From: a bacterium
GTDB lineage: Bacteria; Acidobacteriota; Thermoanaerobaculia; Multivoradales; J023
Direction of reading: 5' to 3'
DNA: 64,000 nt
Assembly: GCA_024226315.1 (NCBI GenBank)
Contig: JAAELT010000170.1
Location: 2,415 to 66,414 of the forward strand
Part shown: positions 7,223-47,612 of the stretch, in pieces
Position numbering within the stretch: position 1 is the stretch's first letter
Layout: every line of letters starts with the position of its first letter
Position numbers and translations under genes: made by a program
The notes under the pieces: generated by a model
Database searches by the model: none
What the model was told of the DNA's origin: nothing
The model's input: only the letters and a program-made list of their open reading frames with translations

Positions 7223-7723
7223 TCAGCTCACCACGACATCATGGTCGAGCATGGCGTCGCCGTCGAAGACGAAGCGGCCGTTGAAGTGCTTGCCCTCGAG
7301 CATCAGCGGCAGCCAGATCTCGTCGTCGGCCCACATCTCCTCGTACGGAATCGCGTCCAGGTCGGTCCACAGCGGGATCGCTTCCTCGGTCTCCCGCGCC
7401 TCACCATGGCAATCGGTGGCGGTGAAGACATAGACGTAGATCGAGTATCCGTCGGCGAACTGGAACAGTAGCTCACCCCGTTGGGAGAGGCCCATCGGGG
7501 TGACCATCAGCTCTTCCTCGACCTCGCGGATCGCGCACTGACGCGGCGTCTCACCTGGGTCCATGCGCCCGCCCGGACCGTTGATCTTGCCGGCGCCGAG
7601 GCCGCGCTTCTTGCGGATCAGCAGGATCTGGCCGTCGCGCACGACGAACAGCAGGGTCGCGCGGTCGACAGGCGTCCACGTCGGCCAGTCGATCGCCGCC
7701 AGGCTGGTGATTCCGGGTTCCAC
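7223..7723 (-). CDS. NUDIX hydrolase (MutT-like)
   Basis: It has the Nudix box [26 protein letters not shown] (GX5EX7REUXEEXGU). It is transcribed divergently from the TIR-STAND gene, with only a 66-bp intergenic region. Confidence 0.85.
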
Positions 7724-7789
7724 GACGCGCTGACGGTATCAGCCCGAGTTTCATTCGGGTAGCTCTCGTCAATGCTATTCTGCCGCTGA

Positions 7790-10705
7790 ATGAGCGCCAT
7801 CTTCATCAGCCACAGCAGCCGCGACAACGAAGTCGCCGCGGAGGTCCGCGACCGCATGGCGGCACAGGGCCACCGCTCGGTTTTCCTCGACTTCGATCCC
7901 GCCGACGGCATCCCCGCGGGCCGCAGCTGGGAGCAGGAGCTCTACGCCCGGCTCAAGGTCTGCCGGGCGATCCTGGTGCTGTGCAGCGAGCACTCGATGG
8001 CCTCGGACTGGTGCTTCGCCGAGATCACCCATGCCAAGTCGATGGGCAAATACGTGATCCCGATCAAGGTGGCGCCCTGCGAGATCCGGTCGCTGCTGAG
8101 CGAGTTCCAGATCCTCGACCTGACCGCCGACCCCGAGGACGCCTACACGCGGCTGTGGCGCGGTCTCGAGATCGCCGGGCTGGATCCGAAGAACATGTTC
8201 GACTGGGACGGCAGCCGGCCGCCCTACCCGGGACTGCTGGCCTTCCAGGAGAAAGACGCGGCGATCTTTTTCGGCCGCGACAGCGAAACCCGCGAGGGGC
8301 TGTCGCTGTTGCGCCGCGTCGAGCGCTTCGGCGGCGCCCGCTGGACGCTGGTGCTGGGCTCCTCGGGCAGCGGCAAGTCGTCGCTGGTACGCGCCGGCCT
8401 GGCGCCGCGGCTGAAGCGGGACCCGGATTCATGGATCGTGACCCGGCCGTTCCGGCCGCTCGAAGAGCCGTTCGTGGAGCTGGCGCGGGTGCTGGCCGAG
8501 GCCTTCCAGCTCGAGCGCGCGCCGCGCGACGAGAGCGAGACCCAGCGCGTGCTCTATCCGCCGACCGGCGTCACCAAGGGCGCGACGCTGAACCAGATGG
8601 CGGACGAGCTGCGCCTCGCCGCCGGACGCCCCGAGGCACGTGTGCTGCTCTTGGTCGACCAGCTCGAGGAAGTGCTCAGGCGCGACACCGGGCCGCAGGC
8701 CCAACGGTTTCTGGGTTTCCTGCGCGCGGCAACCGAGGAGAAGAACAGCCCGGTACGGGTGCTCGCCACTCTGCGCTCGGACTTCCTCGGCGACTTCCAG
8801 GCCCACCAGTCACTGCGCGACCTCGCTTTCGAGACCCTCAACGTCGGCCCGATGTCGGTCGAGGGCTTCGCCGAGGTGATCGAGGGGCCGGCGGAGCTTG
8901 CGGGAATCGAGCTGGGGTCGGGCCTGGTGCAGGCGATGGTCGAGGACACCGAGACCGAGGACGCCCTGCCGCTGCTCGCCTTCACCCTGCGCGAGCTGTG
9001 GGAGGGCTACGGCCAGGACTCCCGGCTGGACGTCGACGAGTACCGCGACAAGCTCGGCGGGCTCCACGGAGCCGTCGCCCTGGCGGCCGAGTCGGTGCAC
9101 GGTTCGCGCAAGCTCTCGGAAAAAGAGGAGACCGATCTGCGGACCGCCTTCCTGGGGATGGTACGCATCAACGAAGACGGACAGTACGTCCGCCGGCAGG
9201 CCGCACGTTCGAGGCTGCCGCGCAGCGTGCAGGATCTCCTGGATCGCTTCGTCGAGGGGCGGCTGCTGGTGGCGCGCGGCGACGAGTACGAGAGCCGGCT
9301 GGAGGTGGCGCACGAGGCGCTGCTGCGCTCCTGGGACCGCCTGGTGGCCTGGCTCGAGGAAGACCGGGCCTTTCTGCTGTGGCGACGGCGCGTCGAGGAA
9401 TCCCGCCGGGAATGGGAGCGCACCGAGAACCACCGGGACGCGCTGCTGCGCGGCCCGGCGCTGAAAGAAGCCGAGGGTTGGATGGGCATGCGCGACGATC
9501 TGCTGACCGGCGAGCAGCGCACCTACCTGCGGGCCAGCCTGGGCGCCGCTCGCCGCCGCCGGCGCCTGATGGTCGCGCTGGTCGCCGTGGCGATGCTGAT
9601 CCTGGCGGCGATCGCCTGCTGGGCCCACCTCCAGCGTTTGCTGGCCGACAAGGTTCGAGCCTTCTCGCACGACGTCACCATCCTCGCCCACGCGCGCAAC
9701 CTCACCGCCGACGACGCGCCGGGGTCACCAGATCGGCGTCGAGACGCAGCTGCCAAGGGCGCCACGATGCTGCTGCAGCTCAACCATCCGGAGCTCTACG
9801 TCCACAGCCTGGATCTCGAGCAGCTGGAGGAGGACGATCGTTTGCTCAGCCAGAGCCCGGACTCAATGCTGGTGGTGACCAGGGCGGCCGACGGAGGCGA
9901 CATCGAGATCCGATGGGCCTACGACGGCCGCCGGTCCGTGCGCCTGCCGCACGATTCCCGGGTCTACGAGGCGGCGGTCGAGGGGCCGCCCACCGGAGGT
10001 CTCGCCGAGATGCGGGCCTTCATCGAGGACGCCAAGCGCCGCCGGCACGCCCTGACAGCGGCCGAAGATGACGTCGTGAGGCTGTGGTCGCTGCCGGACA
10101 TCGAGTCGCTGATCGTCGACATGCTCGATGCCAAACTGCCGGCGGCGGCGCCACGCGACGCCGGGGCGCGCGAGCCGAAGCTGCTGGTCGAGTTCGACGG
10201 CCACCAGAGCGAGGTGACGCACATGGCCTTCAGCCGCGACGGCCGCTACGCCGTGACCACCAGCGGCAGCGAGGTCGCCGTCTGGCACACCGGCTCGGGC
10301 AGCGAACCGCTGATCGTGGCCGGCCACCGGGACGACGTCACCGCCGCCGCCTTCAGCCCGGACAGCCGGCGGCTGGTCACGGCGGACGCCGACGGAGACG
10401 TCTTGATCCGGGACTTGAAGGATCTGTTCGCACCGCCTGTCACCTGCGACGGCAAACGCCCAGACCTCGTCTCCGCCACCTTCAGCCCCGACGGCACCAT
10501 CGTCCTGACGCTGTCGAGCGACGGCCAGGTGTGGAAGTGCTCAGCGGCCGACGGCACCGCCTCGAAAACCGCGAAGGCGGACTGTGAGGAGGCTCTCGAG
10601 ATCGCATTCGTCGACGTCGACGGCAACTCCAGCGTCGCCTGCGCCGACGGCAGCGCCCGCCTGTTCAACGTCGCGGATGGCGACGAAATGCACGTTCTGC
10701 GGTAG
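7790..10705 (+). CDS. TIR domain - NB-ARC/STAND P-loop NTPase - transmembrane helix - WD40 repeat protein (candidate antiphage/immune sensor)
   Basis: Residues 1-140 have TIR motifs (IFISHSSRDNEVA, ILVLCSEHSMASDWCFAEI with the conserved Glu). FFGRDSETREGLSLL followed by LVLGSSGSGKSSLVRAGL gives an NB-ARC-like GRE motif plus Walker A at about aa 190. Residues 592-614 (RRRRRLMVALVAVAMLILAAIACWAHL) form a hydrophobic helix. The C-terminal 170 aa carry WD40-like repeats (HQSEVTHMAFSRDGRYAVTTSGSEVAVWH, GHRDDVTAAAFSPDSRRLVTADADGDVLIRD). Confidence 0.85.
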   Translation: MSAIFISHSSRDNEVAAEVRDRMAAQGHRSVFLDFDPADGIPAGRSWEQELYARLKVCRAILVLCSEHSMASDWCFAEITHAKSMGKYVIPIKVAPCEIRSLLSEFQILDLTADPEDAYTRLWRGLEIAGLDPKNMFDWDGSRPPYPGLLAFQEKDAAIFFGRDSETREGLSLLRRVERFGGARWTLVLGSSGSGKSSLVRAGLAPRLKRDPDSWIVTRPFRPLEEPFVELARVLAEAFQLERAPRDESETQRVLYPPTGVTKGATLNQMADELRLAAGRPEARVLLLVDQLEEVLRRDTGPQAQRFLGFLRAATEEKNSPVRVLATLRSDFLGDFQAHQSLRDLAFETLNVGPMSVEGFAEVIEGPAELAGIELGSGLVQAMVEDTETEDALPLLAFTLRELWEGYGQDSRLDVDEYRDKLGGLHGAVALAAESVHGSRKLSEKEETDLRTAFLGMVRINEDGQYVRRQAARSRLPRSVQDLLDRFVEGRLLVARGDEYESRLEVAHEALLRSWDRLVAWLEEDRAFLLWRRRVEESRREWERTENHRDALLRGPALKEAEGWMGMRDDLLTGEQRTYLRASLGAARRRRRLMVALVAVAMLILAAIACWAHLQRLLADKVRAFSHDVTILAHARNLTADDAPGSPDRRRDAAAKGATMLLQLNHPELYVHSLDLEQLEEDDRLLSQSPDSMLVVTRAADGGDIEIRWAYDGRRSVRLPHDSRVYEAAVEGPPTGGLAEMRAFIEDAKRRRHALTAAEDDVVRLWSLPDIESLIVDMLDAKLPAAAPRDAGAREPKLLVEFDGHQSEVTHMAFSRDGRYAVTTSGSEVAVWHTGSGSEPLIVAGHRDDVTAAAFSPDSRRLVTADADGDVLIRDLKDLFAPPVTCDGKRPDLVSATFSPDGTIVLTLSSDGQVWKCSAADGTASKTAKADCEEALEIAFVDVDGNSSVACADGSARLFNVADGDEMHVLR

Positions 10706-10725: not shown

Positions 10726-11385
10726 ATGCTCGACAGTCTCGTTCCCGCTCTCGGCTTCGGCTTCATCGCCGGCATCATGCCGGGCCCACTGCAGTCGTTC
10801 CTGCTGCTCCAGACCCTGCGTCACGGGCCACGGGGCGGGGCCTGGATCCTACCCGCGCCGCTACTGAGCGACGGTCCGATCATCGTCGTCTGCCTGGCCG
10901 TGCTGAGCCAGGCTGGATCCGGTCTGCTGCGCGGCCTGGCTCTGTGCGGTGGTTTGTTCCTGATCTATCTGGCATGGGAGAGCTGGCGCGCGCTGCGCGC
11001 CGACGGCGCCCGGCCCGACGCGCGGTCCGCCGACGAGCAGATCTCCGCCACCTCGGCGGGTCACTCTGGCCGGGCGCTGCTGGTCCGCGCGGCGCTGATC
11101 AACGGGCTCGGCCCGGGACCGTGGATCTTCTGGGGTACTGTCATGGGACCGCTCCTGATTCAGCAGTGGCGACTCTCGCCAGGCCGCGGCCTGGCCTTCC
11201 TCGGCGGTTTCTACGGCACCCTGATCGCCCTGCTCGCCCTGCAGCTGGCGCTCTTCACCTTCGCCCGGCGCCTGGGCCCGCGGATCGCCCGCGGCGGCTC
11301 CTGGCTCGGCCGGGCGCTGCTGCTCGTGTTCGCCGCTCTCCTGATCCTCTACGGCCTGGGCGCGATCGACCGCTTCGGGCTCTGA
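10726..11385 (+). CDS. LysE/RhtB family amino-acid exporter
   Basis: The 219-aa product has six hydrophobic segments and LysE-translocator-like N- and C-terminal motifs. Confidence 0.75.
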   Translation: MLDSLVPALGFGFIAGIMPGPLQSFLLLQTLRHGPRGGAWILPAPLLSDGPIIVVCLAVLSQAGSGLLRGLALCGGLFLIYLAWESWRALRADGARPDARSADEQISATSAGHSGRALLVRAALINGLGPGPWIFWGTVMGPLLIQQWRLSPGRGLAFLGGFYGTLIALLALQLALFTFARRLGPRIARGGSWLGRALLLVFAALLILYGLGAIDRFGL

Positions 11386-11402: not shown

Positions 11403-13409
11403 TCACGGCATCCAGGCGCTGGTGTCCCCGCTTTCGAAACCATCGGCGAAGATCGACCCGTTCAGCTCGATCGACCGGGCGAAGATATCCAGGTCGCCGT
11501 TCACGGTCGCCGGATACACCGCCACGACCTTGTCCCCCGCCACCGCCAGGCCGACAAAATCGCCCAGAAACTGTTCGAAGCCGAAATCCTCGGTGCCGGC
11601 ACTGGTGAACGAGACCGGAGTCAGGCGAACCTCCGTCCAGCTGTCCCCGCGGTCCGAGCTGGTCGCGTAGTAGACGTCGACGAAGCCCGCTTCGACATCA
11701 TCGAGCTGCGGCGTGTTGCGGGTATCGAAGAACATCAAATGCAGGCGACCGTCCGTGTCGACCTCGAGCCAGGGAAAGAACTGGTCGCCTGGAGGACTCG
11801 AGTCGCCGTGAATCACCCGCGGCACCTCCCAGGTATCTCCCTGGTCGCTCGAGCGCGTGAAATAGGTATCGACGTTGGCCTGGCCCTCGACAACCTCGGT
11901 CGTGTCGAAGTAGACGCAATAGAGAACGCCGTCGATCGGATCCACCGCCAGGTAGGTCAGCGCGGCGGCTCGGAAACGGCCGGGGAAACGGGAGCCGTCC
12001 TGGGCGTCCCAGAAGTCCAGCCGCTGGGCGATCGTGATCGGATCACTGACGGTAGCGCCGCCGTCGAGGCTGCGTTGAAGCATCACGCCGTCCTCGAAGT
12101 CCCAATAGGCGATGTAGAGCTCGCCACCCGGGCCGACACGCGGCAGATAGCCGACGCCGAAGTCCAGCGGCAGAATGCCGGACCAGGTAGCGCCGAGGTC
12201 GGCGGAGGCCTGGAGCCCGAGATTGTAGGTGACGTAGAGCCGCGTGGCAGATGGATCGCCCGGAGCCGGTCCGGCCGCCATCCACCCCTTGTCCAGCAGG
12301 TTCTCCTGGTGGACGAACACCACCGGGTCGAAGACGGCTGCACCGGGCGCTTTGCGGGCGACGTAGATGTTGCCCGGTGAGCCGAAGGTGATGGCGCCTG
12401 CCCACATGAAGCCGGTCCGCGGGTCGTAGGCGGTCATCGGATCGGCTTCGTAGCTCGTCACCGGCGCACCTGGTGGACGCAGCAAGAAGTCCGTCCAGGT
12501 CTCGCCACCGTCGAGGCTCACGCCGACGCCCAGACTCCAGGCGCCGACTCCTCCACCGTCACGTAGATCGTTCCAGGCCGCGACGACTTCGGCGCTCGAG
12601 CCGGCGCCCCTCGAACCTCCGTCCGATGCCACCACCGAGGTCTCCGCCGAGTGGCTGGTGCCGCTCCCGGCATCGACGCGGACCCTCGGTCCAACTACGA
12701 TGCCCGCGCTGCCGCGCTCGATCGAATGGGTCGGGCCCCGCGTCATCGCCCGCGGCGGTCCGCCGGATTCCAGAATCGGCCGCAGCGCCACCGGGACGGC
12801 TCCCCCCTGGGCTTCCGCCGCCTCCAGGTGGCGCAGCGCCGCGTCCCGGTCGCCCAGGTAGTGGTAGCCCACGGCCAGCCGAGCGTGCGCGGCACCGTGG
12901 GCCGGATCGAGCGCCAGGACGTCCTGCCATCGATCGATCGCCTCGGTCCGCCGGCCGAGCCGTTCCAGGGTGCGCGCCAGGCCCACCCGGGCCCCGAGAC
13001 CATAGGGATCGAGCCGCAGGGCCTGTCGAAACGACGCCAGGGCCTGCTCGGACCTGCCCAGGGTACGCAACGTCCTTGCCACATGCTCCCAGGCCTCCGG
13101 CAGGTCCGAGGCCGCGTTCACCGCCCGGACGAACTGCTCGAGCGCCGCGATCCGGCGCCCGGAGTCGAGCTCGGCCCGACCCTGTTCCAGCAACACCAGG
13201 GCAAGCCGGCGGTCGCCGTGCACCACCGGTGGCGGCAAAACTTCGCCGCGCGGCAGATCTTCGAGGATTTCCGCCACTCGGGCCGCGCGTGGCTGAGCAG
13301 GACCGAGGACGCCGGTCGGATCCGAGGCCGGCTGCTTCGATCCGGCCGCGAGCGAGCAACCGGCGAGGAGCAACGAGATCACCAGGAGCACGGCGAGCGA
13401 GGGAGACAT
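11403..13409 (-). CDS. lipoprotein with N-terminal TPR repeats and C-terminal BNR/Asp-box (sialidase-like) beta-propeller repeats
   Basis: The start carries the lipobox LLAGCS. The N-terminal third has TPR-like helices. Asp-box SxDxGxTW motifs recur (SLDGGETW, SSDQGDTW, SSDRGDSW). Confidence 0.75.
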   Translation of the reverse strand: MSPSLAVLLVISLLLAGCSLAAGSKQPASDPTGVLGPAQPRAARVAEILEDLPRGEVLPPPVVHGDRRLALVLLEQGRAELDSGRRIAALEQFVRAVNAASDLPEAWEHVARTLRTLGRSEQALASFRQALRLDPYGLGARVGLARTLERLGRRTEAIDRWQDVLALDPAHGAAHARLAVGYHYLGDRDAALRHLEAAEAQGGAVPVALRPILESGGPPRAMTRGPTHSIERGSAGIVVGPRVRVDAGSGTSHSAETSVVASDGGSRGAGSSAEVVAAWNDLRDGGGVGAWSLGVGVSLDGGETWTDFLLRPPGAPVTSYEADPMTAYDPRTGFMWAGAITFGSPGNIYVARKAPGAAVFDPVVFVHQENLLDKGWMAAGPAPGDPSATRLYVTYNLGLQASADLGATWSGILPLDFGVGYLPRVGPGGELYIAYWDFEDGVMLQRSLDGGATVSDPITIAQRLDFWDAQDGSRFPGRFRAAALTYLAVDPIDGVLYCVYFDTTEVVEGQANVDTYFTRSSDQGDTWEVPRVIHGDSSPPGDQFFPWLEVDTDGRLHLMFFDTRNTPQLDDVEAGFVDVYYATSSDRGDSWTEVRLTPVSFTSAGTEDFGFEQFLGDFVGLAVAGDKVVAVYPATVNGDLDIFARSIELNGSIFADGFESGDTSAWMP

Positions 13410-13593
13410 GAATCCGATAATGCTACGAAAGCATGTCTACGTCAACACCCAACCGTCTCGTTCTATGAGCCGTGCCGTCTTCCTGGCTCAGACCTCGAGG
13501 ACGTCGATCTGCCCGATCGCCCACTCGGTCAACGCCTTCAGCTTCGGATCCTCGCTTCTCAGCAGCCGTCGCAGCTCGGGCAGGGCGTCGGGC

Positions 13594-13827
13594 GGCACCA
13601 TCACCCTGCGTCTGGGAAGCGACAACGGCCACCGCTGGGTCGCGGTCGAGGATTCCGGCGACGGCATCTCTCCGGAAGCGCGCGCCCAACTCACGTCGTT
13701 CTTCACCACCAAGGAGAACGGCCGCGGCCTCGGCTTGACGGTGGTCAAGGAGGTCCTGAGCCGTCACGGCTTCGCCTTCTCGCTCGAGAACGCGGAGACC
13801 GGCGGCGCGCGCTTCCGAATCGAGATG
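13594..13827 (+). pseudogene. histidine-kinase HATPase_c fragment (gene remnant lacking HisKA/N-box)
   Basis: The segment GTITLRLGSDNGHRWVAVEDSGDGISPEARAQLTSFFTTKENGRGLGLTVVKEVLSRHGFAFSLENAETGGARFRIEM contains the G1 and G2 boxes and the C-terminal end of a histidine kinase. No HisKA domain or start lies upstream. It is in frame with, but upstream of, the signal peptide of the next gene. Confidence 0.45.
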
Positions 13828-13878
13828 TCACCGCCAAGCTCCGATATGATGGCTGTCCATACCTCGAAGGAGACCTCA

Positions 13879-15030
13879 ATGCGCCGAACCGTCGCGCCGG
13901 TGGCGCGCAAACGTAACACCGCGCCGGAGGCGCGCCGACGAAACATCGTCCTGCCACTTGTCATGGTCGTGGCTCTCGCCGCGCCCGCCGTGGCGCAGCC
14001 CGAAGACTCACCACCGCTGAGCGACGAACCGGTGCTCGACATCGACTTCGAGGAGCTGGTCGAGGTCTCCGAGGTTCTGATCGACGTCCTGGCGACCGAC
14101 GAGGAGGGTCAGGTCATCGAGGGGCTCGGCAAGGACGACTTCATCATCGAGGAGGACGGCCAGCCGGTGGAGTTGACCAGCGTCAGCTACTACACCACCC
14201 GCTACGGCGAAGACGCAGCCGAGGACGAGGTTCCCGCGAGCCGCTACTTCGTCTTCTTCTTCCACAACCAGTGGCAGCTCGGCCACTTCGGCGGCGACCT
14301 GACGCGTCAACAACTGCGGGCCGGCCTGCAGAGTCGGCGCTGGCTGGAGGAGGAGATGCTGCCGTCGGATTGGGTGGCGGTGGTCAGCTTTGGCGGCAAG
14401 CTCAAGCTCCACCAGGACTTCACCCAGGACAGGGAAGCCCTGGAGAAGGCCTTCAAGAGCGCCGCCTCGGGCAGGAAGCCCGCCAGCGACGCGCCCCTCC
14501 GTCGCCGCTCACCGGGCTCGTTCGAGCTCTCTCTGCTCAGCCGTATGCCCAAGGGCCGCGAGCTGCGCGATCGGGTGAACAACGTCTATCAGGCACTCGA
14601 GGTGGTGGCCGAGGCGTGCGGCTACGTCATCGGCCGCAAGAACCTGTTGATGTTCACGATCGGTTTCGGCCGCGAGGTTCGCTTCGGTGACGCCGAGCCG
14701 GATCCCCGCTACTACCCCCAGCTCGAGACGGCGCTCAACGATCACAATGTCGCGGTCTACCCGATCGATACCTCGCCCGCCGGCCGCGGCACGCGGCAGA
14801 CCGACTTCCTGACCCAGCTGGCCGAGGACACCGGCGGCTCGTACTTCGAGGACTTCGTCGGCTTCCTCCACCCGCTGCGCGACGTCAGCGGCGACAGCTA
14901 CGCCTACTACGTGCTCAGCTACCAGAGCGAGCACCCCGCCGGCGAGATCGGCTACCAGCGCATCGAGGTCACGGCGCGCGACGAGAGCGTGCTGGTGCGC
15001 ACGCGCAGGGGGTATCGATACGGGCTCTGA
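13879..15030 (+). CDS. secreted VWFA-related acidobacterial-domain protein (degenerate VWA)
   Basis: It has its own signal peptide (MRRTVAPVARK...IVLPLVMVVALAAPAVAQP). The motif DEEGQVIEGLGKDDFIIEEDGQPVELTSV matches the N-terminal signature of the TIGR03436-like family as I remember it. The rest of the 13408-15030 ORF upstream is the kinase remnant. Confidence 0.5.
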   Translation: MRRTVAPVARKRNTAPEARRRNIVLPLVMVVALAAPAVAQPEDSPPLSDEPVLDIDFEELVEVSEVLIDVLATDEEGQVIEGLGKDDFIIEEDGQPVELTSVSYYTTRYGEDAAEDEVPASRYFVFFFHNQWQLGHFGGDLTRQQLRAGLQSRRWLEEEMLPSDWVAVVSFGGKLKLHQDFTQDREALEKAFKSAASGRKPASDAPLRRRSPGSFELSLLSRMPKGRELRDRVNNVYQALEVVAEACGYVIGRKNLLMFTIGFGREVRFGDAEPDPRYYPQLETALNDHNVAVYPIDTSPAGRGTRQTDFLTQLAEDTGGSYFEDFVGFLHPLRDVSGDSYAYYVLSYQSEHPAGEIGYQRIEVTARDESVLVRTRRGYRYGL

Positions 15031-39073: not shown

Positions 39074-42000
39074 CTAGCCTCCGCCCTCCTCCGCCGGCCT
39101 CGTCGCCAGGTCCGACATGTCTATCTTGCGCAGCGAGGCCACCAGGTCATTCAGCATGTCGAGGCTCTTCAAGGTGCGGTCGAGCTGCTGGGTGAGGGCA
39201 CGGTCGGCTTTGCCCTCTGCTTTCTTGAGCTTGCGGCCGATACCCTGCACCAGGGGCAGGAGGTTGTCGCCGACGATGCCGGTGAGGTGGGCGAGCACTT
39301 CGTGCACGCCGGAGCCGAGGGTCTGGACGACCTGGGTGCCGCGGGGTGACTCGGCGAGGCCGGTGAGGGTCTGGTCGAGCTTCTCGAGGTAGGGGGTGAG
39401 ATCGGACGTGGCCGGCTGAGGCGCGGGGGAGGGTTCCCCGGCAGGTGCCGCGACGGCGGCGGGGGACGGCTTCGCGGCCACCTCGCAGAGCTTGTCGAGG
39501 CGCTCCAGGAAGGCGTCGAGGCGCTCGCCGATCAATTTCGACGAAGCGTCGTCGCCGGCCGGCTTCGAGACGCTCTTCGCCGCCTTCGCCAGGGACGCGA
39601 GGTTCGATTGCAGCTTCTTCAAGTAAGGATCGAGGGTTGCCTTCAGCGCCGCGGCGGCGGCGTCCTCGCCGCCCGAGTCCTCGCTCGGCTGGCGGGCGAG
39701 CTCGCTCGCCGACTGGATGGACGAGCCGATGTCCTGCAGGCGGTCCGACACCAGGCCGAGCTGGCCGATCAGGCGGATGGCGGGATCGTCCTCGGCGCCG
39801 CCCATGGCCTGGACGCGGGCGAAGCCGCGCTTGATCTCTTCCCAGCGCTGCTGCTCCTCGCCTGAGAGCACGCCGCGCAGCTCGCGCAGCTTCAGGATGT
39901 TGTGCTCGGCGCCGGTGGTCAGAGTCTGGGATTCGCCGGCGTAGTGGTCGTCGATCAGCGCCTCGAGCTCCGCGTCGTTCATCACCGGCACAATTCTTTC
40001 GGCCAGCTTGTTCATGTTGCGATAGCTGCCTTGGAGCTGGAAGCGCGGCTCGGTGCGGTAGGCGTCGTCCTGGGAGGCGGAGTAGATGTATTGCTGGTTG
40101 ACCGCCAGCAAGACCTCCTGCACCCGCAGCAGCTTGCGCAGCACCGACAGCAGCTCCTCGAGCTCGATCGCCGAGTAGTCGTGGGAGAGCTGATCCGGCG
40201 GCATCTCCTCGCCCCGGGCCATGCGCACGAGCTTGAACAGGTCGTCGCCCTCGCGGGTGGTGAGCGGCGCCATCACCGGGTTCGAGGTCAGGGCGTTCTC
40301 GAGGTAGGAGAGGGCGAAGAGCTCGTCCTTGCCTTCGAGGATGTCGCCCAGGTTGTAGGTGTCGGCGCGGTTGGCCAGCATGTCGGGGATCTGAAACTTC
40401 TCCCCCGCCTCGGTGTAGGGGTTGCCCGCCATGCACACGGCGAAGCGCTTGCCGCGCAGGTCGTAGGTGCGCGTGCGGCCTCCCCAGATGCCCTCCATGC
40501 GGCGCTGGGCGTCGCACAGGGAGATGAACTTCTGTAGCAGCTCGGGGTGGGTGTGCTGGATGTCGTCCAGATACAGCAGAACGTTGTTGCCCATTTCGAG
40601 CGCGAAGCTGATCTTCTCGATCTCCTGGCGGGCGGTGGCGTTGGAGGCCTCCTGCGGGTCGATCGAGGTCACCGCGTGCCCCAGGGCCGGCCCGTTGATC
40701 TTGACGAACACCAGCCCGAGCCGGTTGGCGACGTACTCCATGAGCGTGGTCTTGCCGTAGCCCGGTGGCGAGATCAGCAGCAGTAGCCCCATCTGGTCGG
40801 TGCGCTTGTCTTCGCCGAGGGCGCCGAGCTGCTTGGCCAGGTTGTCGCCGATGATCGGCAGGTAGACGTCGCTGATCAGGCGGTTGCGTACGAAGCTGCT
40901 CATCACCTTGGGCTCGTACTCGGTGAGCCGCAGACGCGCCCGCTCGCGCTCGAGCATCTCGTGACGCAGCTCCTGGAACTTCCGGAAACCGGCGACCCGG
41001 CGCTGGCGAAAGGTGGCCAGGCGCGAGAGGAACTCATCGAGGCGCAGCCGCATCTTGCGGCCGGCGACGCGCGGGTGCTGGCCGAGCAGGCCCTCGACCT
41101 CGACCGAGGACAGGGCGCTCGACACGGTCCTTTCGAGACGACGCTCGGTGAGCAACAGTGCCACGGCTTCTTCCAGGCACGGCTCCAGCCGCTGGTGCTC
41201 GTCGCCGGCCTGGTCGAGGAACGCCGCCAACCAGGCGCGGGCCAGGCGGTAACGCTGAGTGAGGTCGTTCTCGAGCTCGCGCAGGTCGTCGTCGAGCTCG
41301 CGGCGGCTGCCTCCGCTTTCGAGCAGTGCCAGGAAGGCGTCGCGCAGCTCCACTGCCTCGGCGCTGGTCACGAAGCTGTGAGGTTTCTTGGCCAGCTCCT
41401 CGAACAAGTAGGCCCCCGCCCGCTGAGCGTCGTCGGGATGGATCTCCAGCTCGTTCTCGGCGAAGAAGGCGGCGATGGCGTCGGCCAGCTCCTGGTGGAA
41501 GCGGATAATCGCCGGGCTGTGGGCGAAGGCGCCTCGCAGGCGGCCGAGACTGCGCGCCCGCCGCTCCCAGAGCAACCGTGAATTGGGCTCCTGATGAAAG
41601 GCCCAGAACAGGCAGGCGAAGGCCCGCGGGCGCGGCGCGAAGCGCAGCAGGTCGGCGGTCGAGTAGAGCCCCACCAGTTGTTCGAGGATCAGCGCCGTGT
41701 CCTGGTCGTGCAGGCCACGCTCGTAGCCCTCGTCGTAGCGCTCGGCCGAGTAGCGGCGGACCAGATCCACCAGGCCGGCCTCGGCCACCACGCCCTCTTG
41801 CAAAGCCGAAAGCGTCAGACCGGCGGTCTCGACCTCAGCGTCGAACAGCATCGACGCCGCCAGGTACTCAGCTCTATAGACCTCTTCGGTCTCGGACACC
41901 AGGAGCTGGTTCCAGTAGTCCCGGGTGGTCTCGAACTCGCCGTCAGCGACGGTCTCGTAGAAGTCGGTGCCGGAGAGATGGAAGGCCATGGCGTCGCCGG

Positions 42001-44686
42001 ACGGCCCGGTGTTGCTGACGGGGACCATGGTCAGGTCGAACGGCTGGGTGTTGACGCTGAACCGGTGACGCCCGAGCTTGATGACGGTGGCGCCCTCCTC
42101 GAAGATGTCCTGGCGGTCGCGCAGGCCGCGGGCGGCGTCTTCGCGGGCGCTCTTGAGCCGGGAATCGAGCTCGTCGGCCTTGACGCTGTCCGAGAGCTCG
42201 CGCAGCTGGCCGGAGATGTCACGCACCTTGGCGACCATGGCGTCGCCGGCGAAGTAGGCGTTGAGCTCGTCGTTCGATGCCAGGCCCGATGCCCGCCGCA
42301 CGATGCCTTCGAGCACCCGCTCGGCCGCTTTCATCAGCCGGCCGACCCGGCGCTGGCGCTCGTCGAGCAGGGTCTGCTTCTTGGAAGTGATCGCCTCGTA
42401 GACGTCTTCGCGCTTGGTGGCGAGCTGCTCGGCGAACTCGTCGAACTCGCCGAAGCGGCTCTCCATGTCCTCGAGCTGCAGCAACAGCTTGGACAGCTGC
42501 TGGTCGCACTTCTCCGGCGTGTCGGCGAGTGCCATGGCGCCGCTGACACTCTGCGAGAAGAGCTTGAACTGGGCGCCGAACTCCGCCACCCCCTCGCTCG
42601 ACAGCAGCTCCTTGCGCCGCGCCTCGAGCAGCGCGCGGCCGCGGTTCAGCCCGCCGAGCACCTCGGAGATGCGCTCCAGGATCACCGTACGCACGGTGGC
42701 GTCGTCGATCTCGAGATCGCCCAGCACCTCGGTGAGCAGCTCGAGCGCGTCGCCGATGGCGGTGAAGCCTTCGGTCAGCGGCTTCGCGTCGGCGGTCTTC
42801 TCCACCTCGTCGATGCCGGCCACCAGCTCGCCGATCCGCCGATGGTAGGGCTCGAGCGCCTCCTCGGTGTCGAGGAAGCTCACCGTCTCGACGCTCAACT
42901 GGTCGAGCTGCTCGACCACCGCGGCCTCGAGCTCGTCGAGGCGTCCGCGGTCGACGTAGCGCTGCTCGCGCAGGCTGATCAGGTGGCCGCGCTGGGTGCG
43001 CAGCTTCGACAGGCCGGCGACGAAGTGGTCGGTGGTGGTCTTGGCCTCGGTGCGCACCTCCCGGAAGAGCTCCTCGAGCTGGGCTTCGCTCTCCGCGACC
43101 GCCTCGCGAGCGCGCTTGCGGATGGCCCGCACCTTCTCGAACTCGTCGACGATCAGCTCGACGGTGGCGCGCACCTCCTTCAGGCTCGGCCCCATGCCAC
43201 CGGCCTCGTCGCCATCGAGCCAGTAGTAGGCGTCGCCCATGCGCACGGCGGCCGCGATCAGGTCCTCGTAGATCTCGGCGCTCGGCTCCTGCTCCTCGAT
43301 CAGCCGGCCGATCGACAACGCGTCTGAGATGCCGCGCACCAGGTCGGCGTTGCCCACCTTCTCCAGGAAGCTGTCGCCGGTCGGCGCCTGGGCGGCGTAC
43401 TCGTCGCTGGTGAACGGGGTCTGCCAGATCTGGATGGCGTGCACCCGGGTGGGCTCGCCTGAGAGCGCGCGGAAGATCGCCAGCTTGCCGTCCTCGAACA
43501 GGCTGAAGCCGTTGCAGTGGATCGGGCTCGCCACTTCCTTGCGGATCATGTTGTAGGACAGCAGGATGGTGCGCCCCGCGACGCGCTCGTGGAAGACGTA
43601 GAGCACGTCCTCGCCGTTGGGCGAGCGCACCACGCGCATGAACTCCATCTCCGCGACGTCGCCCTCGAAAGACTTGGTCTCGCCACTCTGCAGGTAGTAG
43701 CCGCCGGGGAAGATCAGGCCGTGGTCCTCGGGCAGCAGCAGGCAAGCCTGGCCGATGGCGTCGAGGCGCGTGACCTTGTGGTTGCGGGTGTTGAACACCA
43801 GGTAGCGCCAGGTGGTCTCGTTGTAGGGCAGGATCTTCAGCAAGATCAGCGGCCCGACCCTGGCGTAGTGGATCTCGCCGTCGTCGAGGCTCTGGTCCGG
43901 CTCGTCCACCGGCTCGCGGTAGATGCCCAGGCCATCCTCGGTGTTGTCCTCGACCTTGACGGTGAGATCGCCGCCCACGGTCTCGACGAATACTTCGTCG
44001 AGCACCGAGACGTGGGGGTGGCGCCCGAGAACGAAGTCCTCGCGGGAGGTCGCGGTCCACTCGAAATCGTGCGACGGCGGGAAGACGTGATCGCGCTCGC
44101 CACGGTTGTCGATGTAGGTCGCCACGCCGTCCGGGGCGATCGCCCAGCGGAAGACCTTGATGTCGCCTACCGTCCTGCCGGTCTGGAAGACCGCCAGCAG
44201 CTTGTCGTCGATTCGGCGCAGCTGCAGCAGGCGGGTTTCCTTGTAGTACTTGTAGAGCTCCTTGAAGTCGCGGACGAACTCTTCGTCGCTCAGGAAGTTG
44301 TCCGGCGAGTCTTCGGGTATCGGCTCGAAGGAGAAACCGGAGTTGGTCTCAGTGAACAAGTGGAGGCTGAGCACGTCCTCCACGCGGGTCTCGGTCTTGA
44401 GGCCGATGAAGACGTTGTAGCCGAACAGCAGCTTCTCGCCCGGCTCTCCATCAGAGTGGCGGCCGACGTCGCGGATGTCACGCGGTACGCAGTTGTTGTC
44501 GGTGCGAATGCGCTGGTTGCCGAGCACCGTGGTCTCGGTACCGCCGAACACCTCCAGCCGCCGGGTGTTGAGCCCGTTCGCCGCTTCGGACAGGCCCCGG
44601 GCGTGCTGCTGGAGACGGTCGCGGAGCAGCTCGTAGGTACCGCGTTCGAGGGTGGCCTCGGCGGTCGATTCCGGCTCGTCGCTCAT
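39074..44686 (-). CDS. giant (1870 aa) multidomain protein: beta-rich N-terminal region, long helical/coiled-coil middle, MoxR/AAA_5-like ATPase near the C-terminus
   Basis: This is a continuous ORF with good GC3 bias. The Walker A LLLLISPPGYGKTTLMEY lies at about aa 1300, Walker B/sensor motifs are VLLYLDDIQHTHPELL, and an AAA_5-like AVCMAGNPYTEAGEKFQIPDMLANRADTY is present. The start codon is 6 nt after the flotillin stop. Confidence 0.8.
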   Translation of the reverse strand: MSDEPESTAEATLERGTYELLRDRLQQHARGLSEAANGLNTRRLEVFGGTETTVLGNQRIRTDNNCVPRDIRDVGRHSDGEPGEKLLFGYNVFIGLKTETRVEDVLSLHLFTETNSGFSFEPIPEDSPDNFLSDEEFVRDFKELYKYYKETRLLQLRRIDDKLLAVFQTGRTVGDIKVFRWAIAPDGVATYIDNRGERDHVFPPSHDFEWTATSREDFVLGRHPHVSVLDEVFVETVGGDLTVKVEDNTEDGLGIYREPVDEPDQSLDDGEIHYARVGPLILLKILPYNETTWRYLVFNTRNHKVTRLDAIGQACLLLPEDHGLIFPGGYYLQSGETKSFEGDVAEMEFMRVVRSPNGEDVLYVFHERVAGRTILLSYNMIRKEVASPIHCNGFSLFEDGKLAIFRALSGEPTRVHAIQIWQTPFTSDEYAAQAPTGDSFLEKVGNADLVRGISDALSIGRLIEEQEPSAEIYEDLIAAAVRMGDAYYWLDGDEAGGMGPSLKEVRATVELIVDEFEKVRAIRKRAREAVAESEAQLEELFREVRTEAKTTTDHFVAGLSKLRTQRGHLISLREQRYVDRGRLDELEAAVVEQLDQLSVETVSFLDTEEALEPYHRRIGELVAGIDEVEKTADAKPLTEGFTAIGDALELLTEVLGDLEIDDATVRTVILERISEVLGGLNRGRALLEARRKELLSSEGVAEFGAQFKLFSQSVSGAMALADTPEKCDQQLSKLLLQLEDMESRFGEFDEFAEQLATKREDVYEAITSKKQTLLDERQRRVGRLMKAAERVLEGIVRRASGLASNDELNAYFAGDAMVAKVRDISGQLRELSDSVKADELDSRLKSAREDAARGLRDRQDIFEEGATVIKLGRHRFSVNTQPFDLTMVPVSNTGPSGDAMAFHLSGTDFYETVADGEFETTRDYWNQLLVSETEEVYRAEYLAASMLFDAEVETAGLTLSALQEGVVAEAGLVDLVRRYSAERYDEGYERGLHDQDTALILEQLVGLYSTADLLRFAPRPRAFACLFWAFHQEPNSRLLWERRARSLGRLRGAFAHSPAIIRFHQELADAIAAFFAENELEIHPDDAQRAGAYLFEELAKKPHSFVTSAEAVELRDAFLALLESGGSRRELDDDLRELENDLTQRYRLARAWLAAFLDQAGDEHQRLEPCLEEAVALLLTERRLERTVSSALSSVEVEGLLGQHPRVAGRKMRLRLDEFLSRLATFRQRRVAGFRKFQELRHEMLERERARLRLTEYEPKVMSSFVRNRLISDVYLPIIGDNLAKQLGALGEDKRTDQMGLLLLISPPGYGKTTLMEYVANRLGLVFVKINGPALGHAVTSIDPQEASNATARQEIEKISFALEMGNNVLLYLDDIQHTHPELLQKFISLCDAQRRMEGIWGGRTRTYDLRGKRFAVCMAGNPYTEAGEKFQIPDMLANRADTYNLGDILEGKDELFALSYLENALTSNPVMAPLTTREGDDLFKLVRMARGEEMPPDQLSHDYSAIELEELLSVLRKLLRVQEVLLAVNQQYIYSASQDDAYRTEPRFQLQGSYRNMNKLAERIVPVMNDAELEALIDDHYAGESQTLTTGAEHNILKLRELRGVLSGEEQQRWEEIKRGFARVQAMGGAEDDPAIRLIGQLGLVSDRLQDIGSSIQSASELARQPSEDSGGEDAAAAALKATLDPYLKKLQSNLASLAKAAKSVSKPAGDDASSKLIGERLDAFLERLDKLCEVAAKPSPAAVAAPAGEPSPAPQPATSDLTPYLEKLDQTLTGLAESPRGTQVVQTLGSGVHEVLAHLTGIVGDNLLPLVQGIGRKLKKAEGKADRALTQQLDRTLKSLDMLNDLVASLRKIDMSDLATRPAEEGGG

Positions 44687-44692
44687 CGCCGG

Positions 44693-46681
44693 TTAGCTGT
44701 CGTCGCTGTCGGTGGTGTCGAGTCCCGCCTCCTCGGCGGCTTCGAGCAACTGGCGCAGCTTCGACGAGCGGTCGCCCGGTGCCTGCTGAAGCAGCCGCCC
44801 GAACAGGCCCGCCAGGCTCAGGTTGCGGACGTCATCCGAGGACACGGCGGGGCGCGAGAGCACGTCCTTCAGGTCGGCAGCGAAACTCTTGTCGCCTTCC
44901 AGGTAGTCCTTGAGCAGCTTCTGGCTGGTCTCGCTCTTGTCGACGAAGGCGTCGACCGCCTTGCCCATGCCCACCGCCTGCACCAGGCGGTCGAAGAACA
45001 CCGTGTCGCCACCGACGATGTCGATGTCGGCCTGCTTGAGCCCCTCGGCGATCACCCCGGCCTGGGCCTCGGCGATGTGGCGCCGGGTGTCGATGCCCGC
45101 CAGCTCGATCTCCTTCTGTGCCTGGAGGCGCAGCCGGTACTCCTCGTGGTCGCGGCTCGAGGCGTCCAGTGCCTTCATCGACTCGGCCTTCTCGGCCAGA
45201 CCCGAGGCCTCGCCGAGCAGCTTCTCGCGGATCGCCTCACCTTCGGCCAGTCCCTTCTTGCGCAGCACCTCCGCCTCGGCGGTGCCCATCTTCTCGGTCG
45301 CCGTGGCGTCGGCCTCCTTGACCCGCACGTTGGCCATGCCGAGCTTCTCGACGGCGTCGGCGTCGCGCTCCTTGACCTGGACCTCGGCCAGACCCGCAGC
45401 CGCCTGCTCCGCCTTGATGCCGTCGGCCATGCGGATCTTCGCCTGGGCTCGCTTGTCGGTCGCCGCCAGATGGGCCTCGGCCAGAGTCAGCTCTTCACGG
45501 CCCTTGTGCTTCGCGGCCGTCTCGGCGGCCTCCGCGGCCTTGATGTCTTTGACCAGCAATTCCTGGGCCTCGGCCTCGGCGGTGATGATTGTCGCTTCCT
45601 TGGTGCGTTTGGCGTCCTCGACGATGCGCACTCTCTTGATCGCTTCTTCCTCCTCGGCGACGGTCTTCTCCACCGCCACGCGCTCGCGGATCACGACGGC
45701 GATCTCGCGCTTCTCGTGCTCGACCTCTTTGTCCTTGGCGATGGTCTGGAGTTGGGTCTCGCGATCGCGGCTGATCACCTCGATCAGGCGATCCTTCTCC
45801 ACCCGCTCGTTCTCCACCGCCACCACGCGCTCGCGGTTCTTCTGTGCCACCTCGACCTGGCGGTGGCGGTTCTCGTCCTGGACGCCGATCTCCTCTTCGG
45901 CCTTGATGCGGGCGCTCTCGGCCTTGAGCTTCTCCTCGGCCTGCACCTTGAGGGTCTCGGCCTGCTCGCGGGCCCTGACCGTGGCGATCTCGCGCAATTG
46001 CTTGGACTCGGCGTCGGCCTGCTGGCGCTCGAGCTCGTAGATCGCCTCGGCCGCCTCGACGTCCTGCTTCTTGATCAGCTTCTTCTCGTTGTTCTGGAAC
46101 TCGTTGGTCTTGACGTGCTCGATGACGGTCAGGTCGGTGATCTTGCGGATGCCCTGGGCGTCGAGGATGTTGAGCTCGTCGAGCGAGGAGACCGGCGTCT
46201 GCTCCAGGTAGTCGATGGCGCAATCCTCGAGCGAGTAGCCGTTCAGATCGGTGCCGATGACCTCGATGATGCGGTCGCGCAGGTCCTCGCGCTGGGTGTA
46301 CAGATCGACGAAGTCGAGCTGCTTGCCGGCGGTCTTGAGCGCTTCTGAGAACTTGGCGCTGAACAGCTCCTCGAGCGTCTTCTGGTCCGATGCCCGGGTG
46401 CAACCGATCGCCTGGGCCACCTTGATGACGTCTTCCTCGGTCTTGTTGACCCGCACGAAGAAGGTGATCTTGATGTCGGCACGGATGTTGTCGCGGCAGA
46501 TCAAGCCATCGGCACCGCTGCGATCGATCTCGATGGTCTTGACCGTCATGTCCATCAGCTCGGCCTTGTGGATCACCGGGATCACCAGACCGCCGGTGAA
46601 GCTCACCTGCACCTTGCCGGACGCCACGTTGCTGACGATGAGGGCCTTGCCCTGTTCGACCTTGACGATTCCTAAAGCCAT
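44693..46681 (-). CDS. flotillin (SPFH/band-7 family, YqiK/FloT-like)
   Basis: The N-terminal SPFH domain is MALGIVKVEQGKALIVSNV...IEIDRSGADGLICRDNIRADIKITFFVRV. It is followed by a long EA-rich coiled-coil (flotillin) region. The 662-aa length is typical. Confidence 0.85.
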   Translation of the reverse strand: MALGIVKVEQGKALIVSNVASGKVQVSFTGGLVIPVIHKAELMDMTVKTIEIDRSGADGLICRDNIRADIKITFFVRVNKTEEDVIKVAQAIGCTRASDQKTLEELFSAKFSEALKTAGKQLDFVDLYTQREDLRDRIIEVIGTDLNGYSLEDCAIDYLEQTPVSSLDELNILDAQGIRKITDLTVIEHVKTNEFQNNEKKLIKKQDVEAAEAIYELERQQADAESKQLREIATVRAREQAETLKVQAEEKLKAESARIKAEEEIGVQDENRHRQVEVAQKNRERVVAVENERVEKDRLIEVISRDRETQLQTIAKDKEVEHEKREIAVVIRERVAVEKTVAEEEEAIKRVRIVEDAKRTKEATIITAEAEAQELLVKDIKAAEAAETAAKHKGREELTLAEAHLAATDKRAQAKIRMADGIKAEQAAAGLAEVQVKERDADAVEKLGMANVRVKEADATATEKMGTAEAEVLRKKGLAEGEAIREKLLGEASGLAEKAESMKALDASSRDHEEYRLRLQAQKEIELAGIDTRRHIAEAQAGVIAEGLKQADIDIVGGDTVFFDRLVQAVGMGKAVDAFVDKSETSQKLLKDYLEGDKSFAADLKDVLSRPAVSSDDVRNLSLAGLFGRLLQQAPGDRSSKLRQLLEAAEEAGLDTTDSDDS

Positions 46682-46740
46682 TGACGCCTCCTCACTCGAA
46701 AGTCCGTCCGCGTTCTAGCGGGCGGGTTGCATAGTTCTCA

Positions 46741-47517: not shown

Positions 47518-47612
47518 GACACAACCTCGGCGCGGGCGAACGACTGAGACATGTCTCGAAGTACGACCCGGCGCGAGGCGTTATTCATCAGGCTCTCCTC
47601 GTCTTTGCCCGC

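Follow-up and report, generated by a model that had tools for sequence, protein, structure and literature searches.

To our knowledge, the characterized STAND/NLR receptors of bacteria, plants and animals all sense in the compartment that also holds their ATPase switch, and extracellular sensing is usually assigned to a separate class of receptor, such as Toll-like receptors and receptor kinases. The closest described systems to the protein analyzed here are the TIR-nSTAND1 proteins, whose NTPase clade was defined, and placed among conflict systems, by Kaur, Iyer, Burroughs and Aravind in 2021 (PMC8195603). They share with our protein the order of effector, NTPase and variable C-terminal sensor (WD40, FGE-sulfatase or TPR) and are mostly encoded by stand-alone genes; the published description makes no mention of the membrane helix and presumes that they sense nucleic acids or proteins of invaders (PMC8195603). 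In the literature searched, no experimentally characterized TIR-nSTAND1 member was found, and transmembrane STANDs are named only in passing, in two papers. A first-pass annotation of this DNA had not recognized the topology of the gene product from characterized systems; this stands insofar as no characterized member was found, and is qualified by those passing mentions.

Plant TIR-NLRs such as RPP1 (PDB 7dfv/7crc) have the same order of TIR, STAND and repeat sensor and the WCxxE catalytic-glutamate motif, and the RPP1 fold match covers both the TIR and the NTPase parts of our protein at an identity of about 13-14%. Their NTPase, however, is of the NB-ARC type and their sensor is an LRR, and they are soluble and cytosolic, with sensor and switch in one compartment. 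Apaf-1, the best whole-chain fold match (Foldseek), also joins a STAND NTPase to a WD40 propeller sensor, but it carries a CARD adaptor rather than an enzymatic TIR domain, has two propellers, is soluble and is autoinhibited through contacts of the propellers with the NTPase. Contacts of that type would be impossible in the protein described here, as a membrane is predicted to lie between the two domains. The bacterial Avs1-5 and bNACHT proteins are likewise single polypeptides of effector, STAND switch and sensor that are activated by oligomerization, and EfAvs5 is a fold match; they nevertheless belong to other STAND clades, and their characterized sensors recognize phage proteins inside the cytoplasm.

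Toll-like receptors share single-pass topology, an extracellular repeat sensor, a cytoplasmic TIR domain and ligand-induced association, but their LRR sensor is N-terminal (the opposite polarity), they have no NTPase switch and their TIR domain is generally considered to be a scaffold and not a NADase. Apart from the TIR fold, this likeness is convergent and not homologous. A precedent for the topology itself is provided by the single-pass Ser/Thr receptor kinases of Planctomycetota with predicted periplasmic WD40/TPR arrays, in which an enzyme that uses nucleotides lies in the cytoplasm and is joined by one transmembrane helix to an array of repeats at the extracytoplasmic C terminus (PMC11032199). 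The output of these kinases is phosphorylation, however, and they have no TIR-coupled STAND switch. The propeller of our protein resembles that of the kinase PkwA.

Results

Domain architecture

The gene lies at positions 7790..10705 (+ strand) of the window, that is, the whole 64-kb stretch of DNA that was analyzed, and is complete, encoding a TIR-nSTAND1-TM-propeller protein of 971 amino acids. Homologs align with it end to end, sharing the same start and C terminus, and the start codon is backed by an N terminus, MSAIFISHSS, that is invariant in the homolog alignment. A database sequence search returned more than 3,160 homologs at E ≤ 1e-10, so the architecture of this open reading frame is no chance feature.

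The TIR domain (aa 4-122; 7799..8155, +) matches Pfam TIR_2 at E 4.6e-20 over profile positions 1-121 of 122, and also ThsB_TIR at E 1e-5. Its best PDB sequence match is Cat1, and a Foldseek search with a model of residues 1-590 matched TIR structures at target TM-scores of 0.74-0.79 (ranks 42 and 44). In the motif SDWCFAEI, Glu78 (codon 8021..8023, +) is the putative catalytic glutamate; it aligns with the corresponding glutamate of Cat1 (SDWCWDEL) and of SNC1 and AT1G72930 (WCLNEL/WCLDEL), and is invariant in a 50-sequence alignment of relatives. On these sequence grounds the domain is a putative NADase that may cleave NAD+.

The nSTAND1 NTPase module (aa 145-549; 8222..9436, +), composed of nucleotide-binding, helical and winged-helix domains, matches PF20703 at E 3.4e-95, scoring 320.3 bits where the gathering cut-off is 27.1 and spanning positions 1-378 of the 379 in the profile. 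Its motifs are intact and, across 73 sequences, invariant at G190, S192, G193, G195, K196, S197 and S198 of the Walker A motif GSSGSGKSS (aa 190-198; 8357..8383, +), at D290, Q291 and E294 of the Walker B region LLLVDQLEE (aa 286-294; 8645..8671, +), at P367 of the GxP motif (EGPA) and at His508 of the winged helix (VAHEAL). Fold matches of the 1-590 model (Foldseek) include Orc1/Cdc6, RPP1, EfAvs5 and Apaf-1. In Pfam, nSTAND1 and AAA_16 account for the NTPase region; NB-ARC (PF00931) and NACHT (PF05729) are absent among the best 25 matches, down to E 0.002. The nSTAND1 NTPase family as a whole comprises about 10,000 clusters of 50% identity at E ≤ 1e-30.

The beta-propeller sensor (aa ~685-970; 9842..10699, +) is predicted to be extracytoplasmic. 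Pfam WD40-type matches extend over aa ~797-969 (WD40 E 9e-16) and detect about four repeats; in the AlphaFold model, however, DSSP assigns 24 strands between residues 685 and 970, and the propeller, of six or seven blades, is therefore complete rather than limited to those repeats. By Foldseek it resembles PkwA, WDR5 and G-beta (target TM-scores 0.57-0.65). As Pfam detects just aa 797-969 of it and relatives mostly measure 1,300-1,450 aa, a truncated or degenerate propeller was suspected; this is rejected on three grounds, namely ten short-form homologs with the same C terminus, the confidently modeled beta-domain and the Foldseek superpositions on whole propellers. No other globular part varies as much within the close subfamily as the propeller, whose identity is 46%, compared with 67-80% for switch and effector (80% for the TIR domain), a divergence of the kind seen in receptors.

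The profile searches that the first-pass annotation had proposed thus recovered TIR_2, STAND and WD40, with strong matches for TIR and STAND. Its observation is confirmed, and, apart from the corrections given here, its interpretation is supported wherever sequence analysis could check it. Its TIR domain with an intact catalytic-glutamate motif and its WD40 propeller were borne out; of its NB-ARC-like STAND NTPase, the STAND assignment holds and the NB-ARC likeness does not.

The hydrophobic helix

Between switch and sensor, an RRRRR stretch (aa 588-592; 9551..9565, +), the positively charged and predicted cytoplasmic flank, is followed by a predicted transmembrane span, LMVALVAVAMLILAAIACWAHL (aa 593-614; 9566..9631, +), identified by hydropathy and family comparison and made up of 22 uncharged, mostly aliphatic residues. 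It is the sole stretch of the protein whose Kyte-Doolittle value passes 1.6 (maximum 2.79), and its insertion free energy comes to about -3.7 kcal/mol (an additive value on the scale of Hessa et al., 2005). In the AlphaFold model (whole-model pLDDT 89.9), DSSP assigns one continuous helix of 67 residues (aa 574-640; 9509..9709, +; pLDDT ~80) that joins the cytoplasmic and C-terminal halves of the protein. The hydrophobic segment lies mid-way along this helix, between two well-folded halves and not in a helical bundle.

The same features recur in relatives. Across a set of 111 proteins, the length of the uncharged core stays within 19-25 residues (mean 21.4, SD 1.4), and the N-side flank averages 6.1 K+R as against 3.0 on the C side, with the excess on the N side in 107 of the 111. 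The flanks of our own protein carry six K+R and no D+E on the N side, and three K+R and two D+E on the C side. In the close subfamily the span is just 35% identical in sequence although its hydrophobicity is conserved, as expected for a lipid-facing span. These observations, together with the model, support the view that aa 593-614 behave like a true membrane span. Its predicted orientation, N terminus in and C terminus out, agrees with the cytoplasmic location of the substrates ATP and NAD+, the lack of an N-terminal signal peptide and the positive-inside rule.

The first-pass annotation had placed a 23-residue hydrophobic helix at 592-614, one residue too early, and had read it as a membrane anchor. 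Span length, composition, charge asymmetry and structural context all fit that reading with the N terminus inside, and the AlphaFold check that it had suggested for this segment returned the uninterrupted helix described above. Its description of the helix as unusual is contradicted by the family, as a helix is present in 110 of the 120 closest homologs and in 120 of 144 diverse representatives (83%), 20-114 residues after the NTPase module. The novelty consequently belongs to the whole clade and not to this gene. Relatives without the helix carry WD40, TPR, FGE or GAF-HD C termini. Exported-type domains were expected to be confined to proteins with the helix. WD40 and FGE sensors, however, occur both with and without it, and many post-helix regions are without a Pfam match; since those two sensor types are found in both kinds of protein, the type of sensor offers no independent support for an exported location.

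Genomic setting

The gene is chromosomal. Its GC content (0.698) and in-frame GC3 (0.903) both fall inside the range of the flanking genes, and examination of the neighborhood in related Acidobacteriota MAGs, a check suggested at the outset, found its synteny conserved across relatives that are 54-75% identical. The initial view of a resident gene with the GC and codon usage of its host is thereby upheld, and the gene is a typical, resident member of the TIR-nSTAND1 family. We note that synteny across such distances is atypical for fast-turnover defense genes and counts against an immune reading.

Neither a defense island nor a mobile element was found in the window or in five related loci, where the neighbors are housekeeping genes, and defense-island context is absent from the window and loci L001-L010 alike. 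Distant family members adjoin the trp operon, aspS and uvrA. PADLOC-DB v2 profiles gave matches only at the level of the TIR domain (ThsB, Aga-TIR) and one weak AAA match; no model in that database, including those for Avs and bNACHT, matched the whole protein or its NTPase. There is no second copy in the window; two paralogs occur in a single MAG, and a phage sequence search returned just two weak partial matches. A promoter and terminator scan found no terminator ahead of lysE, which begins 20 bp beyond the gene. The family spans many phyla and occurs in Rhizobium, Sinorhizobium, Mycobacterium and cyanobacteria that can be cultivated; one Rhizobium relative of the same layout lies on a conjugative plasmid, where its neighbors are a further TIR protein, a CHAT protein and an IS element.

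The adjacent gene (7223..7723, - strand) encodes a MutT/MTH1-like NUDIX hydrolase (Pfam NUDIX). Orthologs of it, 75-82% identical, stand directly beside the TIR-STAND gene in four of six related loci, upstream in two and downstream in two. It is conceivable that the two genes form a module in which the hydrolase degrades ADP-ribose-type TIR products, buffering leaky activity or ending the signal, and the adjacency on either side of the gene and a weak match to the PADLOC candidate PDC-S07 would agree with this. We nevertheless regard such a module as improbable. Two closer relatives (L002 and L004) and all distant relatives examined have no NUDIX gene within 8 kb, and the best matches of the hydrolase, below family cut-offs, are MutT-type 8-oxo-dGTPases. 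Across the whole family no conserved partner gene was found, the NUDIX adjacency being specific to a lineage, and because the nearby phytase-like gene is syntenic too, simple lineage synteny explains it.

Discussion

The reading that we favor, and consider probable if only just, is that the gene encodes a predicted single-pass membrane receptor of the TIR-nSTAND1 clade, N terminus in and C terminus out, in which a ligand drives activation of a TIR NADase. Both the TIR domain and the ATPase switch would be cytoplasmic, helix 593-614 would span the inner membrane, and the propeller would face the periplasm or the exterior, where it could bind a component of a phage or competitor or some other envelope-associated molecule. 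With the membrane between sensor and nucleotide-binding domain, the sensor could not clamp the latter as it does in Apaf-1. A ligand would most likely activate the receptors by clustering them laterally within the membrane, or else activation would come from a shift of the long helix (aa 574-640). ATP-dependent oligomerization of the STAND modules could then gather the TIR domains, and the assembled active sites (Glu78) may cleave NAD+, resulting in growth arrest, death or a nucleotide signal. We know of no characterized precedent for signal transfer through a single helix to a STAND switch. The neighbors are housekeeping genes and PADLOC recognizes the TIR domain alone. What the computation shows is the domain composition, the intact motifs, the features of the helix with their conservation, and the diversification of the sensor; insertion into the membrane and its orientation, ligand, clustering, NADase activity and immune outcome are inferred.

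The same topology could also serve a resident receptor for envelope or environmental signals, its propeller binding an endogenous or environmental ligand and its TIR domain producing a nucleotide signal or scaffolding without killing. The housekeeping chromosomal context free of nearby defense genes, the composition shared with the neighbors, the phytase-like and NUDIX synteny across relatives 57-75% identical and the position of distant members beside the trp operon, aspS and uvrA all point in this direction, and analogous kinase-TM-WD40 proteins are regarded as signaling receptors. So far as is known, however, the studied TIR-STAND fusions with an intact catalytic glutamate are immune or cell-death effectors, as established for plant TNLs, Avs and bNACHT proteins. 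Divergence of the sensor far outpaces that of the effector, paralogs occur within one genome, the Rhizobium plasmid copy sits amid TIR and CHAT genes, and nSTAND1 is assigned to conflict systems by Kaur et al. (PMC8195603). We judge this alternative to be unlikely, though by no means negligible.

A more radical alternative would deny the membrane span altogether. The hydrophobic segment could be a buried or oligomerization helix, and the protein a soluble, cytoplasmic TIR-STAND-WD40 sensor resembling Apaf-1, which is indeed the best match of the whole-chain model; relatives with WD40, TPR, FGE or GAF-HD C termini and no helix indicate that soluble forms of the family are viable. The run of 22 consecutive uncharged, mostly aliphatic residues speaks against this, as do the tight range of its length in relatives (19-25 residues), their strong positive-inside asymmetry and its location inside an uninterrupted 67-residue helix rather than a helical bundle. 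Furthermore, a packed helix would be expected to conserve specific residues, and here hydrophobicity is kept while sequence is not, which makes the soluble arrangement very improbable.

Returning to the membrane receptor, its implications extend to the clade, as thousands of database proteins share the TIR-nSTAND1-TM-propeller layout. These may constitute a very large uncharacterized class of immune receptors that join a Toll-like topology to an NLR-like ATPase switch and monitor the periplasm or the cell surface; their activation would come from clustering in the membrane and not from the release of an intramolecular sensor clamp. We offer this generalization tentatively, as a serious possibility that falls somewhat short of being probable; if it is true, such receptors could detect components of a phage or competitor before or during penetration of the envelope.

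In summary, should the predicted topology hold, the clade would merge Toll-like and NLR-like designs in one polypeptide. Two questions then arise: how a single transmembrane helix could relay a signal to a STAND switch, and whether NLR-like receptors may sense periplasmic threats before a phage genome is expressed. Both are directly testable, since the family is abundant in many phyla, including cultivable Rhizobium, Sinorhizobium, Mycobacterium and cyanobacteria.

Domain architecture of the TIR-STAND protein

The TIR-STAND gene occupies positions 7790..10705 (+) as an ORF of 971 amino acids with an in-frame GC3 of 0.90. Ten close homologues all carry its N-terminus, MSAIFISHSS, unchanged, which makes the start secure; since they also share its C-terminal end point, the gene is neither truncated nor mis-called. 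The first-pass annotation had placed a TIR domain, a STAND NTPase, a hydrophobic helix with RRRRR and a WD40 region in this one gene, and ORF, Pfam and Kyte-Doolittle analyses agreed almost to the residue: TIR_2 spans aa 4-122 (E 4.6e-20), nSTAND1 (PF20703) aa 145-549 and WD40-type matches aa ~797-969, and RRRRR (aa 588-592) directly precedes the sole strongly hydrophobic stretch, LMVALVAVAMLILAAIACWAHL (aa 593-614; Kyte-Doolittle peak 2.79).

Glu78 of the TIR domain (SDWCFAEI) is unchanged across 50 relatives. Its aligned counterpart in the CRISPR-associated TIR protein Cat1 (E 2.4e-5) is the Glu of SDWCWDEL, and in the plant TIRs SNC1 and AT1G72930 that of WCLNEL/WCLDEL; in NAD-cleaving TIR domains this position holds the catalytic glutamate. 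The NTPase carries Walker A (GSSGSGKSS), Walker B (LLLVDQLEE), GxP (EGPA) and winged-helix histidine (VAHEAL) motifs, and the key residues of all four are invariant in a 73-sequence alignment. Its earlier description as NB-ARC-like did not hold; NB-ARC and NACHT identities were rejected in favor of nSTAND1, which matches over its whole profile (E 3.4e-95). This STAND clade was named by Kaur et al. (2021; PMC8195603), who described fusions with effectors, TIR among them, at the N-terminus and with FGE-sulfatase and repeat sensors at the C-terminus. An AlphaFold model of aa 1-590 (pLDDT 87.9, pTM 0.75) had Orc1/Cdc6, RPP1, EfAvs5 and Apaf-1 as its top PDB matches, the plant TNL RPP1 aligning over TIR and NTPase alike; no solved structure is close, since identity was 11-17% throughout.

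The sensor is a complete propeller with six or seven blades, because DSSP on the AlphaFold model assigned 24 β-strands, along with two short helical insertions, to aa 685-970, and Foldseek superposed this region on whole WD40 propellers such as those of PkwA (5yzv), WDR5 and G-beta (target TM-scores 0.57-0.65). Of the globular parts, the sensor varies most (46% identity in the close subfamily). Two cysteines in the last blades, Cys932 (codon 10583-10585) and Cys951 (codon 10640-10642), are invariant in 11/11 short-form homologues; their conservation would be compatible with a disulfide formed in an oxidising periplasm.

A predicted membrane span common in the clade

Four lines of evidence indicate that the aa 593-614 helix is a true membrane span, predicted to have its N-terminus inside. 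The segment consists of 22 uncharged, mostly aliphatic residues in a row, with an additive insertion free energy of about -3.7 kcal/mol (Hessa 2005 scale). Among 111 proteins, the uncharged core measures 19-25 residues (mean 21.4, SD 1.4), and the 15 residues on its N-side hold on average 6.1 K+R versus 3.0 on the C-side, with the N-side count being the higher in 107/111. Within the close subfamily, identity falls to 35% in the helix, against 80% in the TIR domain and 67-71% in the NTPase modules, and hydrophobicity rather than individual residues is retained, as would be expected of a lipid-facing helix and not of a packed one. In the full-length AlphaFold model (pLDDT 89.9), the segment lies mid-way in one uninterrupted helix (aa 574-640) joining two confidently folded halves. 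The orientation also follows from the needs of the STAND module for ATP and of the TIR domain for NAD+, both of which are cytoplasmic. Full-length Apaf-1 is the best whole-chain fold match (Foldseek); a soluble, Apaf-1-like protein is nevertheless unlikely beside these indications of a membrane span.

The membrane-helix layout had been called unusual, which is not the case within the clade. At E<=1e-10, more than 3,160 homologues match the full-length protein. Of the best 120, 110 carry an R/K-rich stretch and hydrophobic helix at the same position, irrespective of a WD40, FGE-sulfatase or TPR C-terminus. The other ten, soluble WD40 forms and a GAF-HD form among them, truly have no helix (maximum Kyte-Doolittle <=1.41). 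Sensor type gives no independent check on the topology, since WD40 and FGE sensors accompany the helix in some relatives and are found without it in others, and many regions beyond the helix lack a Pfam match. Used alone, the NTPase module retrieved 42,354 cluster representatives (50% identity) at E<=0.001; at E<=1e-30 the number was 9,955. Of the 144 nearest representatives that extend 80 residues or more beyond this module, 120 (83%) have the helix 20-114 residues after it, nearly all with an N-terminal TIR domain. The gene is an ordinary member of its family.

Genomic context and relatives

The gene's GC and GC3 match those of its neighbors, in line with the host-like GC and codon usage stated in the first-pass annotation. 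These neighbors include acyl-CoA ligase, phytase-like and TPR/BNR protein genes, with glycosyltransferases, UvrD, MoaA, a penicillin-binding protein and MacB farther off. No tRNA gene lies in the window, nor did Pfam and PADLOC scans of it detect an integrase, transposase or known defence gene; the PADLOC match to the TIR-STAND protein itself is limited to the TIR domain. The lysE gene (LysE-family exporter; 10726-11385, +) starts 20 bp past the TIR-STAND stop codon, and the two may be co-transcribed, because no terminator-like site separates them and they also adjoin in L006, the locus of a 75%-identical relative. A MutT/MTH1-like NUDIX hydrolase gene (7223-7723, -) is divergent, 66 bp upstream. 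It directly adjoins the TIR-STAND gene in 4/6 related loci, namely the window, L006 (2821-3321), L001 (~7640-8116) and L003 (10907-11437). In two of these it lies upstream in divergent orientation, in the other two downstream in convergent orientation. Its 75-82% identity exceeds that of the TIR-STAND gene. Loci L002 and L004 lack it, as do distant relatives.

The closest homologues (54-75% identity) occur in Acidobacteriota MAGs with synteny partly kept. A single such MAG, isolate OFTM223, holds two paralogues; L002 (JAJCXO010000228.1) and L004 (JAJCXO010000164.1) encode short-form TIR-nSTAND1-TM-propeller proteins 57% and 54% identical to the query, the latter adjoining genes for an ECF sigma factor and two Ser/Thr kinases. 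In distant members, the gene stands alone beside the trp operon, aspS or uvrA, and the family also extends to large plasmids of cultivable bacteria. QIO48709.1 of R. leguminosarum pRL31b3 (1,473 aa) shares the layout (TIR with SKWCFAEF, nSTAND1, KAKTRR plus helix, long C-terminus) and adjoins another TIR protein, a CHAT protein and an IS110 element. This conflict-type cluster on a conjugative megaplasmid (CP050083.1, 29016-44995) comprises two large TIR-domain proteins, one of them TIR-nSTAND1-TM, a CHAT-domain protein and an IS110 transposase, and tblastn located three nSTAND1 places in the pRL31b3 record. Phage records gave only two weak partial matches to the family.

Elsewhere in the window, a four-gene cluster (39074-49928, -) encodes a protein of 1,870 aa that combines DUF3686 (E 4e-211), DUF7902 and an AAA domain, and after it three proteins (662, 258 and 771 aa) that had no Pfam match; none of the four had a PADLOC match. 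A second propeller protein (50074-52005, +; PDZ domain and PQQ_2/BamB-like β-propeller) is unrelated in sequence to the TIR-STAND protein. The mechanically called 540-aa ORF at 13408-15030 (+) opens with an HATPase_c fragment (aa 61-140), after which come a hydrophobic segment and then an unrelated region; the call probably joins the last part of a histidine-kinase gene to the next gene, so that the start is likely mis-assigned.

Discussion

Transmembrane STANDs have been noted before, without analysis or test, in the literature searched. In a 2025 preprint, the sensors fused to Pepco-associated proteases include "transmembrane STAND ATPases", and in a DGR study, one DGR target was predicted to have its NACHT and C-type-lectin domains in the periplasm. 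Kaur et al. (2020; 2021, PMC8195603) did not mention a membrane helix in nSTAND1 proteins, and a 2026 prokaryotic STAND census gives nSTAND clades and WD40 or FGE sensors but does not discuss membranes (PMC13581612). In particular, we found no description in that literature of how prevalent the single-pass layout is among TIR-nSTAND1 proteins.

A single-pass receptor is the best-supported model. The main rival retains this architecture and assigns it to non-immune signaling, for which the housekeeping gene context and the stable synteny speak. A functional partnership with the NUDIX hydrolase is possible, but the association is lineage-restricted. The topology of the single-pass receptor has a precedent among Ser/Thr kinases that likewise span the membrane once and have WD40/TPR arrays predicted to be periplasmic (PMC11032199). 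Ligand binding by the extracytoplasmic propeller could cluster receptors or shift the long helix, upon which the STAND module would exchange nucleotide and oligomerise at the inner membrane face, and the clustered TIR domains would form active sites and consume NAD+. Because the membrane would lie between the sensor and the nucleotide-binding domain, the sensor would be unable to autoinhibit that domain by direct contact, and in this respect the protein would differ from every characterised STAND protein.
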